DNA of 64,000 nt from Rhodobiaceae bacterium. Lineage in GTDB: Bacteria; Pseudomonadota; Alphaproteobacteria; Rhizobiales; JAKPQE01. The position numbers and the translations under genes were made by a program. Below the pieces are notes generated by a model, which was not told where the DNA came from, made no database searches, and worked only from the letters and a program-made list of their open reading frames with translations. Of the stretch, positions 839-47,182 are shown piece by piece. The DNA is taken from assembly GCA_028278505.1 (NCBI GenBank), contig JANQEG010000128.1, positions 16,047 to 80,046 on the forward strand, read 5' to 3'. Within the stretch, counting starts at the first letter, position 1. The number at the start of each line of letters is the position of its first letter.

Positions 839-2683
839 ATGTTTTTCAGATCAAACCTCTGCGTTCTCGCCGTCGCGCTGACGATGGTCGGGACAACGCC
901 CGCTGTTTCCGACGAGACCTATCTTGCGCAGACGGATCAGGTCGAAATCACCTTCTGGGAGAGCGTAAAGGACAGCGCCGATCCGGCCGAGCTCAAGGCC
1001 TATCTGGCGGCCTATCCGGACGGCAAATTCGCAGCGCTGGCGCGGATCAGGATCGAGCGGCTGGAGAACAGCAAGGCAGAAGCGCCGGTCGATGGCGAAG
1101 CGGAAGCGGCAGCATTGCCGCCTGTCAGCCCAACCGATCTCGGCGTTTTGTCGATCGCCCCGCTCAATGAGGCCACCCGTGCTGAATACGGGGTCGACGA
1201 GGCGGCGACCGGCGTTGTGGTGACGGAGGTGGTCGCCGATGACGCGACCACGCCGGTCGATGTAAAAGTCGGTGACCTCGTCACCGAGATCGACGGTGCA
1301 CCGGTTGCGACGCCTGAAGAGGCCGTTGCTTTGGTGAGCGCCGGCAAAGCATCGAAGCGGCGGGTGGCGGTTTTCAGCGTCGTCTCCGATGGCGCCGAGC
1401 CGCGTTTTGCGGTCATTGCTTTTGCGGACCTTAACGTGACGGCACCCCAAGCGGCTGCAGATGCGGCGGCCGAGCCGGCACCGTCAGCCGCCTTAGAAAC
1501 TGGCGAGCGGCTCGCCGTCCCTGTGCGTTTGAAAGGATATACGGACAATGAAGGCCGCGAACGCGGCCGCCTCGGCGTGCAGATTTCGAGTGTCAGCGAG
1601 TTGCTGGGCGAGGCCATCGGCATCGAGACGCAGGACGGAGCCTTAATCTTGGACGTCATCGCCGATGGTGCCGGGGAAGCCGCCGGATTGAAGGTCGCAG
1701 ATATCGTCCTGGCGATTGACGGGCGCAAAGTGGCGGGCATGGCGGATCTGGTGAACATCATCCAAAGCTATTCGCCCGGCGCCGAAATAGAGGTGACGGT
1801 CTGGCGTGGCGAAAAGGGTGCGGAGACGATTATCGACCTAACGAAACGGCTTGCCGAAAGCGGAAACGGCCAGGCCGCTTTTGAGTTGGGTGGACGGTAC
1901 AGCAATGGAAATCTGGTCGAGAAGGACGAAGCGACGGCGGCACGATATTACCGAATGGGCGCGGAAGCGGGACATCCCGCGGCGATGACCGCCTATGGCT
2001 ATGTCTTGGCATTGGGCACGGGTGTTGCGAAGAACCAGCCGGAAAGCGTCGAATGGTACCGAAAGGCTGCCAATGCCGGGGATATGGGTGGCGTGTACCA
2101 ACTGGCTCACGCCCATGATTACGGATTGGGCGTGACCCAGGACCGGGCCGAGGCCACCCGCTGGTATCGAAAGGCCGCCGATGCCGGAAATCAATACGCG
2201 ATGAACCGCCTTGGGATTTTCTATGAGCAGGGCTGGGGCGTTGGACAGGACGCCGCGGAAGCCGCGCGCTGGTTCCAGGCCGCGAGCGACAAAGGGCATG
2301 CCGAATCCGCAAACCGCATAGGATCGGCCTATTTTTCGGGCGTTGGCGTGCCGACGGATGAGGCGAAGGGTGTGGCGTTCTTCCGCAAATCCGCCGAACT
2401 CGGAAATGGCTGGGGCATGTTCAACCTGGCCATGAGCCTCTACAACGGCAATGGCGTGGAGCGGGACCGGCAACAGGCCGCCAAATGGGTCATCGAAGGG
2501 CTACGAAAAGCGGGGCCGGGCCTGGCGGAATCCGTATTCGAAAAGTCCAAAACCTACGATGTAGCGACCCGGAAATGGCTGCAGCGGGTGCTGCGCAACG
2601 CCGGCGCCTATACCGGGCGCATCGACGGTATATTCGGGCCGAAAGTAAAGCAGGCGCTCGAAGCGGTCGCCCGACAGGGATGA
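839..2683 (+). CDS. Secreted multidomain protein: signal peptide, two PDZ-like segments, Sel1/TPR-like repeats, C-terminal peptidoglycan-binding-like domain
   Basis: N-terminal hydrophobic signal '[18 protein letters not shown]'. PDZ-like '[16 protein letters not shown]'. Repeated 'A..WYRKAA..G...A...LG..Y..G.GV' units typical of Sel1 repeats. C-terminal '[18 protein letters not shown]' resembles PG_binding_1. Confidence 0.7.
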
Positions 2684-43656: not shown

Positions 43657-43721
43657 CGCTGCCCGCACTGCCTTTCCGGTGTCGGAGGCGCACGCCTCCA
43701 ATCTGGACCGAACGGTAGCGG

Positions 43722-43750
43722 CCTTTGGTTAAGCCGGCATTAACCAAAGG
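43722..43750. promoter_or_regulatory. Perfect 11-bp inverted repeat containing a TTAA-N7-TTAAC (CtrA-box-like) core
   Basis: 'cctttggttaa-gccggca-ttaaccaaagg'. It lies 20-95 nt upstream of the candidate aminotransferase starts, at the junction with the AT-rich island. Confidence 0.35.
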
Positions 43751-43785
43751 GGGTGGGGGGAGGCGTGTTTGAGATGATGGCTGGG

Positions 43786-43884
43786 TAGGGTGCGATAGCG
43801 AAGCGTATCGCACCGTTTGGGATTTACGGGTGATGAATGGTTGATTGGTGCGTTACGCCGCTTGCGCGACTAACGCACCCTACT
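43786..43884. repeat. Pair of REP-type hairpins ('tagggtgcg.ta...ta.cgcacc')
   Basis: 'ggtgcgatagcgaagcgtatcgcacc' (43789-43814) and 'ggtgcgttacgccgcttgcgcgactaacgcacc' (43847-43879) have outer 'gtagg'/'cctac' ends. A related copy is at 45553-45589. Confidence 0.55.
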
Positions 43885-44028
43885 TGCTTCTGTTTCCAAT
43901 CAATTGCAGTTCAGCAAGTGCGAAAATTGAGCGTCTTTACGAAATTTGATTGCAACAAGTGAGTAACTAAATTAAATTTGAATCATTCGATCTCCACTGA
44001 ATCAGTAAACCGACAGAAAATCAGAACG

Positions 44029-45189
44029 ATGAACAACAATAAAACTCTCGATTTGTGTGATAAACTCGATATCGCAAGATGGATACTTCTCCAAATATTG
44101 TTGACTACATTTTTGTTAATATTGCTAATGAGGTCATGTTATTCTTTCGAGTCGAACTCATTCTCTGATATTATTCAAAACGCTAAAGACGGCGTGGTCA
44201 GCGTTACAACTACTGTTGAAGTGCCCAGGAAAATCGCAGCACCGAATCTCCAAGCTGATTCTCAGTTTCAACAATTTTTCGATGGTTTTCATAAAGAAGA
44301 AAATCAACCCCAAACAATACAATCACTAGGATCAGGATTTGTAGTATCTAAGAACGGATATATAGTTACAAGATACAGTCTTATTAAAGACATGGATGAG
44401 ATAGATATCAAAGCAATAACTGTGGTATTTTCCAATAGAAAAACGTATTTCGCAAATATTGTTGGTTATGATAGAAAAATGAATATTGCACTTCTAAAAA
44501 TTAACTCAGGCGACCCGTTCCAACCGCTGAAGTTCGGAAATTCGGATCAAATCCGTATTGGGGATTGGGTCGTTTCAATGGAAGTCGACGTCGAATACGA
44601 AGTCTCAGCGTCCCACGGCATAGTTTCCGGGCTTCACCGAAAAGCAAAATTTGGTCCCTATGACCGGTTTATTCAAACCAATGCGCTGATCAAACGAAGC
44701 GGACTGGGTGGACCACTTCTGAACGATCGAGGAGAGGTTATTGGCATCATTTCGATGATCCGCTCGCGTTCGAGCATGTGGGAGGGAACGGGATTAGCGA
44801 TCCCATCAAATCTCGCGGTTATAATCATTGAGCACCTTAAATATCGCGGCAAGCTTCGCGGCGGATGGACGGGGATGCGGATTCAGCCTGTCACCGAAGA
44901 AATCGCGAAAAAATTTGGTCTAGACGCACCTCGTGGTGCACTCGTCGCTGGTCTCTCCTCCGACGGACCCGCAGACCGCGCTGGCATAAAGCGCGACGAT
45001 ATCATTCTAGCAATTGATGGTGCAGACGTTGCTGAGATGCGTGAATTACCAAGGATGACTGCTGAAATTCCTCCTGGTAAGGAGGTTGATTTCGTTGTTT
45101 TTCGCAATCGTCGGAAGGTTACCGTGAAGGTGGTGCTTGGAGAACTAAAATCAGTTGAATCACCGAAATTACCAATAAAAAAACCGTAG
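44029..45189 (+). CDS. HtrA/DegP-like protein (trypsin-fold + one PDZ) with all three catalytic-triad positions substituted; predicted pseudoprotease
   Basis: Signal-anchor 'ARWILLQILLTTFLLILLM'. 'SLGSGFVVSKNGYIVTRYSLI' aligns with GSGFIIS.DGYIVTNNHVI. 'KMNIALLKI' aligns with TDLALLKV. 'IQTNALIKRSGLGGPLLN' aligns with IQTDAAINRGNSGGPLFN. PDZ 'RGALVAGLSSDGPADRAGIKRDDIILAIDG'. The ORF is intact but AT-rich. The alternative TTG start is 43978. Confidence 0.75.
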   Translation: MNNNKTLDLCDKLDIARWILLQILLTTFLLILLMRSCYSFESNSFSDIIQNAKDGVVSVTTTVEVPRKIAAPNLQADSQFQQFFDGFHKEENQPQTIQSLGSGFVVSKNGYIVTRYSLIKDMDEIDIKAITVVFSNRKTYFANIVGYDRKMNIALLKINSGDPFQPLKFGNSDQIRIGDWVVSMEVDVEYEVSASHGIVSGLHRKAKFGPYDRFIQTNALIKRSGLGGPLLNDRGEVIGIISMIRSRSSMWEGTGLAIPSNLAVIIIEHLKYRGKLRGGWTGMRIQPVTEEIAKKFGLDAPRGALVAGLSSDGPADRAGIKRDDIILAIDGADVAEMRELPRMTAEIPPGKEVDFVVFRNRRKVTVKVVLGELKSVESPKLPIKKP

Positions 45190-45303
45190 AGGTTCCGCGG
45201 AATGAGAATGTCTAAGATAACATCAATTTCTAGGAAGGAACTCGCTATCAACAGAGGTGTTAAGGGTGTTTTAATAACAGATGTTAGAGCCTGATTCAAA
45301 AGT

Positions 45304-45549
45304 TTATGAGACATAGCAATATGTTGCGAGCCTGCGGATGATGATCCTGATGCTGGCGATGTTTGCCCAAGCCGTAGAGCTTTCGATCGATCGCTCCCAA
45401 TCCTTGGCCAGTCTCCGGCAGCGTCCGAGCCAGGCGAATGTCCGTTCGACAACCCAGCGGCGCGGCAAGACCTCAAAGCCCTCGGCCGTGTCGGAGCGTT
45501 TGATGATCTCGATCGTCCAGTGGCCTTGGCCCTTGAGAGCGGTCTCCAG
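45304..45549 (-). mobile_element. IS5-family transposase gene remnant (C-terminal ~80 codons only)
   Basis: 'WTIEIIKRSDTAEGFEVLPRRWVVERTFAWLGRCRRLAKDWERSIESSTAWANIASIRIIIRRLA' is a typical IS5-family DDE C-terminus. The N-terminal ~2/3 is absent, and the upstream part of the ORF is REP sequence. Confidence 0.75.
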
Positions 45550-45552
45550 AGC

Positions 45553-45589
45553 GTAGGGTGCGTTAGCCGTGCCAGCGGCGTAACGCACC
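45553..45589. repeat. REP-type hairpin, same family as 43786-43884
   Basis: 'gtagggtgcgttagccgtgccagcggcgtaacgcacc'. Confidence 0.55.
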
Positions 45590-45828
45590 GTTCGGGCGCC
45601 GTTTCGATCAGCCCTCTACAGGTCCGTTACGCTGCGCTAATACGCCCGACCATTCGAACTGTGATGGAATTTCCCGAAATGCCCGGCGGCACCCCCTTTG
45701 CGATCACCGGTCAATGGCGCGGAACCTATACGGAAAAGCTGACGGTTATCGCCGTTTGCGGTGAATTGACGCCTTATTCTCCGCAATTCATGCGGTGAAT
45801 AATCTTGCATTTGCGGTGAATAACAAAC

Positions 45829-45857
45829 ATAATCTCCGCAGAAGGTGCGGAGATTAT
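45829..45857. promoter_or_regulatory. Perfect 12-bp inverted repeat overlapping the Fic start codon
   Basis: 'ataatctccgca-gaagg-tgcggagattat'. The right arm includes the first 2 nt of the ATG (45856). The loop 'gaagg' is the only SD-like sequence. It is preceded by the direct repeat 'tgcggtgaataa' at 45791 and 45812. Confidence 0.4.
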
Positions 45858-46965
45858 GTCCTATATCCATGAACGAGACGATTGGCCTGCCTTCCGCTGG
45901 GATGAAAGCGCGATTGCCGCAAAGCTGGCTGCCGCGCGGCATCGCCAGGGCCGGTTGCTCGGGCGCATGGAAGGGCTCGGCTTTGATCTGCGCAATGAAG
46001 CGATGCTGCGCACCCTGACGCAGGATGTCGTCAAGTCCAGTGAAATCGAAGGCGAAATCCTCGATATCGATCAGGTGCGCTCATCGATCGCGCGGCGTCT
46101 CGGCATCGACATCGGCGCGCTGACGCCGGCGGACCGCGATGTCGAAGGCGTTGTCGAGATGATGCTCGATGCGACGAGGGGCTTCGACAAACCTCTGACC
46201 GCAGACCGCCTGTTCGATTGGCATGCGGCCTTGTTCCCGACCGGACGCAGCGGGATGAGCCGTATCATTGTCGGTGCATGGCGTGATGATAGATCGGGGC
46301 CGATGCAGGTCGTCTCCGGTCCGATCGGCCGTGAAAATGTTCATTATCAGGCGCCGGACGCGGGTCGTCTCAACGCAGAGATGGCGGCGTTTCTGGAGTG
46401 GTTTGATCGGAAGGCCAAGATCGATCCGGTGCTGAAAGCGGCCATCGCGCATCTCTGGTTCGTCACCATCCATCCCTTCGCAGATGGCAATGGCCGGATA
46501 GCGCGCGCGATCGCCGATATGGCCCTGGCGCGCTCGGAGGGAAGCGCGCAGCGCTTCTACAGCATGTCTGCGCAGATTCGGCACGAGCGCAATGCCTACT
46601 ACGATCGGCTGGAAGCAACGCAAAAGGGCGATCTGGATATCACGCCCTGGCTGGACTGGTTTCTGAGTTGCCTCGGTCGTGCCTTCGAGGGTGCAGAAGC
46701 CATTCTTGCCAATGTGCTTTTCAAAGCCCGATTCTGGGAAAAGCATATTCAGGCGCCGTTCAACCCGCGTCAGCGCGATATGCTCAATCGCCTTCTGGAC
46801 GGCTTTGAAGGCAAGCTGACCTCTTCGAAATGGGCGAAGATCGAACAGTGCTCGCCCGATACGGCGCTGCGGGACATCACCGAACTGATCGATCAAGGCG
46901 TTCTGCAAAAGGACCCCGGCGGCGGCCGCAGCACCAGCTACTCGCTGGTCGAGAACATCGCCTGA
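45856..46965 (+). CDS. Fic-family protein (AMPylase-type motif, N-terminal inhibitory helix motif, C-terminal wHTH-like region)
   Basis: Active-site 'HPFADGNGRIARA' (HxFx(D/E)GNGRxxR). N-terminal 'SSEIEG' matches the (S/T)xxxE(G/N) auto-inhibition motif. The 'WPAFRWD' N-terminus resembles DUF4172-type Fic proteins. Confidence 0.9.
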   Translation: MSYIHERDDWPAFRWDESAIAAKLAAARHRQGRLLGRMEGLGFDLRNEAMLRTLTQDVVKSSEIEGEILDIDQVRSSIARRLGIDIGALTPADRDVEGVVEMMLDATRGFDKPLTADRLFDWHAALFPTGRSGMSRIIVGAWRDDRSGPMQVVSGPIGRENVHYQAPDAGRLNAEMAAFLEWFDRKAKIDPVLKAAIAHLWFVTIHPFADGNGRIARAIADMALARSEGSAQRFYSMSAQIRHERNAYYDRLEATQKGDLDITPWLDWFLSCLGRAFEGAEAILANVLFKARFWEKHIQAPFNPRQRDMLNRLLDGFEGKLTSSKWAKIEQCSPDTALRDITELIDQGVLQKDPGGGRSTSYSLVENIA

Positions 46966-47114
46966 TATGCGGTCCTTTCGGTCGTGACGTGGGGATGTTT
47001 CAAAGCGCCGCGTGCCTCAGTGCCGAAATCAATCGAGGCAATGCGCGTGAGGGCAAAGACAAGCGGCGCACGACTTGTCGCCCTGCGCCGCCGGTCGGTC
47101 TTTAGAATTTGCTC

Positions 47115-47138
47115 GCCCGGAGGGTGCTCCCTCCGGGC
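47115..47138. terminator. Perfect GC hairpin downstream of amtB (putative terminator)
   Basis: 'gcccggaggg-tgct-ccctccgggc', 45 nt after the amtB stop. There is no clear U-tract. Confidence 0.35.
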
Positions 47139-47182
47139 GCCGCGGTTCGGGGCGGACGGGACAGCCGTTCCCGAAACCACGG

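Follow-up and report, generated by a model that had tools for sequence, protein, structure and literature searches.

Proteases of the HtrA family that have lost their catalytic residues are, as such, already known (MamO and the plant Deg proteins); to our knowledge, MamO is the only HtrA pseudoprotease that has been characterised in bacteria. MamO binds metal, acts non-catalytically, and activates MamE, and inactive duplicates of MamE have three independent origins (PMC4794232). In plants and algae, several Deg proteins carry mutated catalytic triads (PMC3473262), and the degenerated second protease domain of DEG7 mediates oligomerisation (trimerisation) (PMC3194040). Here we analyse a stretch of 64,000 nucleotides from the genome of a Rhodobiaceae bacterium (contig JANQEG010000128.1, positions 16,047 to 80,046; hereafter, the window), in which an open reading frame (ORF) at 43978..45189 on the forward strand encodes an HtrA/DegQ-type protein with all three catalytic residues replaced. 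Probably, this ORF is what is left of a horizontally acquired two-PDZ HtrA gene that encoded a long-established pseudoprotease and was recently truncated by an insertion sequence (IS) of the IS5 family.

A DegQ-type protein with a degenerate active site

The ORF runs for 403 codons from a TTG at 43978; the protein annotated by NCBI is the 386-residue form that starts with the ATG at 44029, and the Logan assembly of the same strain contains a 353-residue form starting with the ATG at 44128. As the first match found came from Logan only, the NCBI pipeline was suspected to have flagged the gene as a pseudogene, which is refuted by the existence of the 386-residue NCBI protein. In agreement with the first-pass annotation of this DNA, which reported an ORF of 386-403 codons encoding an HtrA protease fold and one PDZ domain, Pfam searches recognise Trypsin_2 at residues 118-257 (E = 3e-26) and a single complete PDZ domain (matches to PDZ_2, PDZ, and PDZ_6). 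The Do family model TIGR02037 is matched with E = 1e-85, at a score of 288 bits that lies under the 416-bit cut-off, and only positions 2-332 of the 434 positions of the model are covered. A phmmer search against the PDB retrieves a DegP-like protease with E = 8e-63. The gene is a real HtrA/DegQ-type homologue, with homology along its whole length.

The protein starts with a hydrophobic helix (residues 27-54, 44056..44139), modelled by AlphaFold2 with a predicted local distance difference test score (pLDDT) of ~90, which could be a signal anchor or a signal peptide; judging from the model, we consider it a putative membrane anchor. The degenerate trypsin-fold protease domain follows (residues 61-292, 44158..44853), as delineated by the Trypsin_2 match, the deviating columns described below, and Foldseek, and then the comparatively well conserved PDZ1 domain (residues 293-392, 44854..45153), identified with Pfam and by alignment. 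PDZ1 is 52% identical to its counterparts in canonical proteins, compared to 62% for canonical pairs among themselves, and its carboxylate-binding loop reads GWTGM instead of the canonical GWLGV. In the complete AlphaFold2 model, which was built from a 58-sequence alignment (pLDDT of 86.4; predicted template modelling (pTM) score of 0.76), the N-terminal helix is followed by an HtrA fold, for which the best PDB match in Foldseek is the protease and PDZ1 portion of E. coli DegQ (3stj_A, E = 8e-32, TM score of 0.83, normalised by target length), with DegS structures among the matches.

All positions of the catalytic triad are occupied by other residues. In the phmmer alignment with the DegP-like protease 22kg_A, an alignment that also took in solved MucD and HtrA structures, Ser134 (codon AGT, 44377..44379) stands at the position of the catalytic His (YIVTRYSLI against YILTNNHVV), Asn169 (codon AAT, 44482..44484) at that of the catalytic Asp (DRKMNIALLKI against DPRSDVAVLKI), and Leu243 (codon CTG, 44704..44706) at that of the nucleophile Ser (KRSGLGGPLL against NPGNAGGPLL, where the Ala of 22kg_A is an engineered Ser mutant). 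The replacement of His, Asp, and Ser by Ser, Asn, and Leu had been read directly from the DNA in the first-pass annotation, and both the formal alignment and the exact reading of the codons bear it out. The same columns hold His, Asp, and Ser in 57 of 57 close homologues and in 141 of the 149 cluster representatives nearest to the protein.

The degeneration extends to segments that we take, from general knowledge of the DegP and DegS structures, to be the HtrA loops LD, L1, and L2. The oxyanion-hole motif of L1 reads KRSGLGGPL compared to the canonical NRGNSGGPL, that is, GNSGG has turned into SGLGG; the canonical LD loop, AIGNPFGLGGSVT, has changed to SMEVDVEYEVSAS, with 11 of the 12 conserved columns altered; and 9 of the 14 conserved columns are altered in L2. 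Across the protease domain, the protein deviates at 19 of 55 conserved columns, compared to a median of 2 among the 149 nearest representatives, and is the most deviant of all. Judging from these replacements, the purified product most likely would be unable to cleave, and it is in this sense that we refer to the protein as catalytically dead. The glycine-rich LD segment IGNPFGLGG is replaced by a run of alternating acidic and hydrophobic residues, MEVDVEYEVSAS (44578-44616, residues 201-213), in which the order of the residues is typical of amphipathic beta-hairpins and unlike random sequence.

Truncation of an apparent two-PDZ ancestor

The first-pass annotation described the gene as intact. 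However, the TAG codon that closes the frame (45187..45189) lies in what apparently used to be the linker between PDZ1 and PDZ2, given that translation in the same frame runs on into PDZ2-like sequence (RFRGMRMSKITSISRKELAINRGVKGVLITDVRA, up to the next stop). This remnant (45190..45286, forward strand; …GMRMSKITSISRKELAINRGVKGVLITDV) aligns with the start of PDZ2 (…LGLTLSRLTPELRAKYKLREDLRGVVITAV…) in 31 canonical two-PDZ homologues and keeps 4 of 4 near-invariant columns. When a PDZ2 profile built from these 31 homologues was compared, using hmmsearch, to all six-frame pieces of the window, it matched this 34-residue piece with E = 1e-5 and a score of 22 bits, the match covering only positions 5-34 of the 98 in the model. 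The homology ends at 45286, with ~30 residues of the second PDZ domain left.

At this very point, directly after TTA (a TNA target), begins an IS5 terminal inverted repeat, GAGCCTGATTCAAAAG (45287-45302). In a full-length IS5-family element of Microvirga, the terminal repeat that it matches is GAGGCTGACTCAAAAAG and is flanked by a TCA duplication. The IS fragment in the window (45287..45550, reverse strand) is 79-82% identical, at the DNA level, to the Microvirga IS5 transposase gene and matches only the C-terminal part of DDE_Tnp_1, the remainder of the transposase being the C-terminal ~75 residues of ~275 (ORF 45304-45588). In turn, a 37-nt palindromic repeat truncates this fragment at 45553.

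Because the PDZ2-like sequence continues in frame past the TAG and is cut by the IS5 end, the ancestor appears to have been a Do/DegQ-type gene with the protease-PDZ1-PDZ2 architecture. Relative to the identity among canonical pairs, the identity of the PDZ2 stub to canonical proteins (ratio of 0.82) is close to that of PDZ1 (0.84), the ratio for the protease domain being 0.61; as the stub is no more diverged than PDZ1, the disruption seems to be recent relative to the divergence of the gene. Thus, with PDZ2 mostly gone, a TAG in the linker, and an IS5 terminus at 45287, the gene can no longer be called intact, and an apparently intact ORF can hide a truncation that, in this case, was seen only by reading beyond the stop codon.

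Foreign origin of the gene

The ORF belongs to a low-GC insert of 3.4 kb (43750..47182) between an aminotransferase gene and amtB/glnK, delimited by synteny with relatives and by the GC profile. The host represents a poorly sampled lineage of Hyphomicrobiales; the best orthologue found for its aminotransferase shares no more than 71% identity. In the nearest two relatives (loci L007 and L008), the order of genes is glnK-amtB-amtB-aminotransferase-ftsK-lolA. The window retains amtB1 (84.6% identity), and a conserved motif upstream of the aminotransferase gene is kept to ~43745; the insert occupies the place of the second amtB, which adjoins the aminotransferase gene in both relatives, and comparison of 43702-47182 with this paralogue (L007, 6617-7843; L008, 6633-7859) detected no remnant of it. 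The insert contains repeats that resemble repetitive extragenic palindromic (REP) elements, an AT-rich fragment of 1.4 kb (43884-45286) that is almost solely the HtrA gene, the IS stub, and a SoFic-like Fic gene.

The GC content of the gene region is 0.34-0.53, compared to ~0.66 in the flanks, in line with the low GC content noticed at first reading. At third codon positions, the GC content (GC3) of the ORF ranges from 0.23 to 0.55 per 40-codon block and is ~0.40 overall, whereas the GC3 of the flanking aminotransferase, ftsK, and amtB genes is 0.82-0.88 and that of the Fic gene is 0.71. Because the GC3 is far below that of the host genes and neither of the two nearest relatives has the insert at its syntenic locus, the gene appears to be foreign to the host and horizontally acquired. 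AT enrichment of a native gene in place was considered and rejected: to bring GC3 down from 0.85 to 0.40, synonymous sites would have to be saturated with changes in this gene alone, and the relatives do not have the gene at this position. The label of paralogue, used in the first-pass annotation, is not supported, given that the composition of the gene is foreign and that the window showed no second gene for an HtrA protease. Within 43978-45294, GC3 is uneven, at ~0.5 in codons 201-360 (L1, L2, and most of PDZ1) and ~0.34 in the rest, which could be a trace of old recombination or could be due to chance.

Searches for relatives

Aside from the strain's own copy, no relative above ~46% identity at near-full length was found among ~15 billion proteins. 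A word-indexed search of 5.8 billion clusters returned that copy, followed by two-PDZ alphaproteobacterial DegQ proteins at 37-48% local identity, with 46% for the best near-full-length match; exhaustive phmmer comparison with 1.84 billion representatives yielded nothing above 43%. The best matches were at 43% in 185,579 species genomes, 35% in the metagenome contigs of JGI, and 43.7% in the plasmids of PLSDB. The only other copy, on the Logan contig L005, is 100% identical at the DNA level and comes from the same strain. Orthologues with the same Ser/Asn/Leu substitutions, for which the first-pass annotation had suggested a search, were found in none of these collections, nor was any orthologue sharing the degenerate site. 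The gene is a singleton.

Selective history of the degenerate state

Frame 0 contains no internal stop in 403 codons, compared to 13-28 stops in the other five frames and to a mean of 24.6 and a minimum of 9 in mononucleotide shuffles (n = 2000). There are no frameshifts in codons 1-403, and the alignment with canonical proteins is colinear. Neutral substitution was simulated over 438 codons, starting from the ORF with His, Asp, and Ser restored, with its own composition, kappa = 2, and K of 0.02-0.5; with indels ignored, the joint outcome, in which each of the three catalytic residues is exchanged and no more than one stop is gained, had a probability of 3.5e-4 or less at every level of divergence.

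The changes in the protein are concentrated in the catalytic machinery. Among the columns that are at least 90% conserved in canonical homologues, 33 of 51 (65%) deviate in the five catalytic and activation segments combined (His strand, 5/8; Asp strand, 2/5; LD loop, 11/12; L1 loop, 6/12; L2 loop, 9/14), compared to 10 of 51 (20%) in the rest of the protease scaffold and 8 of 35 (23%) in PDZ1. The catalytic segments differ from the scaffold with p = 7e-6 (Fisher test), whereas the scaffold and PDZ1 are indistinguishable (p = 0.79).

The open frame, the simulation, and the uneven distribution of the deviations together argue that the loss of the triad is not random decay that followed inactivation. 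Indirectly, and from a single sequence, they suggest that selection to keep the frame open and the scaffold folded, rather than neutral decay, shaped the evolution of the degenerate state. Most likely, as far as the sequence can tell, the protein had a long existence as an HtrA homologue that was translated and folded but catalytically dead, and its truncation is recent. More generally, even for a single sequence that has no orthologues, the integrity of the frame, simulation, and the pattern of substitutions can show that catalytic loss predates the disruption of the gene.

Proposed scenario and its alternatives

Under the scenario that we consider the most probable, an AT-rich, two-PDZ gene of the Do/DegQ type would have been acquired horizontally from a putative donor. 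Prior to any truncation, its product would already have been a dead pseudoprotease, with the His/Asp/Ser triad, the oxyanion loop L1, the S1/L2 loop, and the LD activation loop remodelled but with the beta-barrel scaffold and PDZ1 kept. Later, either in the present genome or in an immediate ancestor of it, PDZ2 would have been hit by an IS5-family element, the distal part of the gene together with most of the IS would have been deleted, and the frame is now closed by the TAG in the inter-PDZ linker. The surviving product would consist of the N-terminal membrane anchor, the dead protease domain, and PDZ1, a DegS-like layout reached via truncation. If this presumably periplasmic protein is still made, it could only bind, for example, capture C-terminal or unfolded peptides through PDZ1, or form trimers via the protease domain, perhaps together with active HtrA subunits. 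As for the present copy, it probably is a relic that does little or nothing for the host.

Several considerations weigh against this scenario. The 1.2-kb frame up to the TAG is undamaged and is annotated by NCBI as a normal coding sequence (CDS) of 386 codons, which means that the host could still express, and profit from, the truncated product; moreover, the protease and PDZ1 domains together form a foldable unit (as in 3stj), and the TAG could be a tidy-up mutation that removed an unfoldable PDZ2 stub. Because the host lineage is poorly sampled (the nearest housekeeping orthologue is 71% identical), the lack of orthologues is only a weak argument against retention. Finally, the simulation leaves out indels and uses a simple substitution model.

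The strongest alternative, which we regard as possible, although distinctly less probable, is a functional one-PDZ pseudoprotease that is kept by selection in the host as a membrane-anchored periplasmic holdase, a peptide sensor, or a regulator or decoy that joins active HtrA trimers. The absence of stops over 403 codons of AT-rich DNA, the selective remodelling of the catalytic loops with the scaffold and PDZ1 retained, the confident fold model, and the CDS in the NCBI annotation are all compatible with such a function, for which MamO (PMC4794232) and the degenerated DEG7 domain (PMC3194040) provide precedents. However, PDZ2 has been disrupted by an IS5 insertion, a nonsense codon precedes what remains of PDZ2 in the frame, and the foreign fragment is just ~1.4 kb long, from the REP-like element to the end of the IS. 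The collections searched contain no orthologue and hence no evidence of retention. A consensus scan of the AT-rich leader of the foreign fragment (43884..43977, forward strand) found no sigma-70-like promoter (0 sites compared to 3.0 expected); as for Shine-Dalgarno sequences, they are variable among the host genes as well. In PDZ1, a 100% conserved position of the carboxylate-binding loop has changed from Leu to Thr. The first-pass annotation argued for retention in a non-catalytic role and against decay: with respect to the history of the protein, this argument is upheld by the frame, the simulation, and the column pattern, whereas current retention in the host is doubtful, considering the lack of orthologues, the relatives without the insert, and the promoter scan.

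A more specific variant of continued function is speculative and, in our view, unlikely. The truncated protein would still be made as a membrane-anchored, binding-only HtrA subunit, in which either the strongly acidic LD hairpin (EVDVEYEV) and the altered L1 and L2 form a new ligand or metal site, or the subunit enters co-trimers with the active HtrA of the host and damps or redirects proteolysis; the TAG would then be an adaptive trim after the IS hit. If true, this would be a horizontally acquired dominant-negative or regulatory HtrA subunit. Any function of the protein would bring a free-living alphaproteobacterial addition to the small set of bacterial HtrA pseudoproteases and would suggest that dead HtrA subunits move horizontally.

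That a formerly active DegQ gene simply became a pseudogene and decayed, with the changes in the triad and the loops accumulating neutrally after inactivation, is improbable. Such decay would fit a truncated singleton with a premature stop that sits on a junk-like insert beside an IS fragment and deviates at 19 of 55 conserved columns (median of 2), more than any of the 149 nearest representatives; but it is at odds with the low simulated probability at any divergence, indels ignored, with the absence of frameshifts, and with the strongly non-uniform deviations. Besides, the PDZ2 remnant past the stop is as conserved as PDZ1, which leaves little time since the disruption. Finally, there is hardly any chance that the protein is an active protease with shifted or non-canonical catalytic residues, such as Ser241 (two positions before Leu243, inside the L1 motif) combined with one of the four His residues of the protease region, for instance, His213: no alignment shows a canonical residue at any of the three positions, the oxyanion-hole GNSGG reads SGLGG, most of the conserved columns in LD (11/12) and L2 (9/14) deviate, and none of the homologues has such an arrangement.

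Repeats, the Fic gene, and other features of the window

The HtrA gene and the IS fragment are bracketed by an inverted pair of 37-nt palindromic elements, the arms of which (43847..43883 and 45553..45589; inverted repeat I1) are 92% complementary, with the right arm truncating the IS fragment. A variant copy is located at 43785..43821 (repeat families D3, D7, and I5). This GC-rich element of ~37 nt (GGTGCGTTACGCC…GGCGTAACGCACC) has three copies in the window, all around the insert. Independent short-read contigs from Logan, L005 and L006, break exactly at the 37-nt repeats, with L005 starting at the variant copy and ending at 45550; contig breaks of this kind suggest that the genome holds many copies of the repeats, as a REP-like family spread across it, in which case it would be reasonable to describe the locus as REP-bracketed. 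No RNA elements and no tRNA integration site were found at the insert.

The other gene of the insert (45856..46965, forward strand; GC3 of 0.71) encodes a DUF4172-Fic protein; both the IS remnant (DDE_Tnp_1) and the Fic gene named in the first-pass annotation are confirmed by Pfam. The Fic protein gives a full-length match to the SoFic anti-phage defence model of PADLOC (E = 4.5e-47) and scores 49.5 bits against the cut-off of 550 for the SoFic equivalog model of NCBIfam; the gene is known only from the records of this strain. A perfect 14-bp palindrome (45827-45840 / 45846-45859) overlaps the Fic start codon, and TGCGGTGAATAA occurs twice just upstream of the gene (45791-45802 and 45812-45823). 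In the first-pass annotation, the location of the HtrA gene in a REP-bracketed island, beside the IS remnant and this neighbour, was taken to raise the possibility of an accessory or conflict-related role. The neighbour is there, but the link between the two genes is weak because their GC3 values differ (0.40 and 0.71) and the IS fragment and a repeat lie between them. Membership of the degQ-like ORF in a defence system was rejected, as PADLOC yields only generic trypsin-domain matches of ~30 bits (RT-Protease_XI).

Elsewhere in the window, a GC-rich host ORF (839-2683, forward strand) encodes a 614-residue protein with a signal peptide, two DegQ-type PDZ domains, five Sel1 repeats, and PG_binding_1, and with no protease domain; its first PDZ domain resembles PDZ2 of DegQ (E = 1e-20), and the second resembles PDZ1. 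In an unrelated genome (GCA_017792465.1; locus L014, 5001-7326), a gene for a 394-residue, one-PDZ Do-type protein with GNAGG (Ser replaced by Ala) is located 14 bp upstream of a Sel1/PG_binding_1 gene. Taken together, the two arrangements may point to a recurrent association of Sel1/peptidoglycan-binding proteins with HtrA-type modules that are non-catalytic.

Comparison with known HtrA proteins

By sequence, the protein belongs with the Do/DegQ/DegP HtrA proteases of Alphaproteobacteria (TIGR02037, MEROPS S1C), given its 41-46% identity to their DegQ members. In common with them, it has the trypsin fold and PDZ1, a segment for export or anchoring at the N-terminus, and an ancestral state with two PDZ domains. 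It differs from them in the replaced triad, the remodelled GNSGG, LD, and L2 segments, the loss of PDZ2 via an IS, and the AT-rich, foreign gene, and it scores far below the cut-offs of the equivalog models for MamO, DegS, DegQ, and DegP. Its layout, in which a transmembrane helix at the N-terminus precedes a protease domain and one PDZ domain, is that of DegS (TIGR02038; 170 bits compared to a cut-off of 423). DegS, however, is catalytically active and has one PDZ domain natively, whereas the one-PDZ state of the protein described here would be secondary, resulting from truncation.

Like MamO and the inactive MamE duplicates, this is a bacterial HtrA-family protein with a degenerate active site and a preserved fold; those proteins arose by duplication or acquisition beside active HtrAs, in a family in which pseudoproteases have evolved repeatedly (PMC4794232). 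MamO, though, combines a TauE transporter domain and a di-His metal site with membership of a conserved clade and a conserved magnetosome island. The protein in the window has none of these features: the MamO model NF040961 scores 74 bits compared to its cut-off of 800, Pfam finds no TauE domain, and the gene is truncated, has no orthologues, and resides in an unrelated genomic context. The inactive Deg/HtrA proteins of plants and algae (AtDeg16, AtDeg6, and the second domain of DEG7) similarly have mutated triad residues or truncated domains, but they are eukaryotic, conserved across species, in some cases fused to an active domain, and none of them is close in sequence. The degenerated domain of DEG7 nevertheless is a plausible model for a binding-only role.

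Closer to DegQ, about six of the 149 nearest cluster representatives, taken at 50% identity (~4%), have degenerate triads: YAA in P0195, SDA in P0157, HDA in P0135 and P0156, ENS in P0264, and HGD in P0131 (loci L013 and L014). Some of these are encoded on megabase-scale contigs and, therefore, are not assembly artefacts. None has been characterised; most keep two PDZ domains and far more conserved loop motifs than the protein in the window, to which they are 33-39% identical. As they are no closer to it than canonical members are, they apparently arose independently, and a proportion of ~4% suggests that the loss of the triad is a recurrent and under-studied phenomenon in the Do family.

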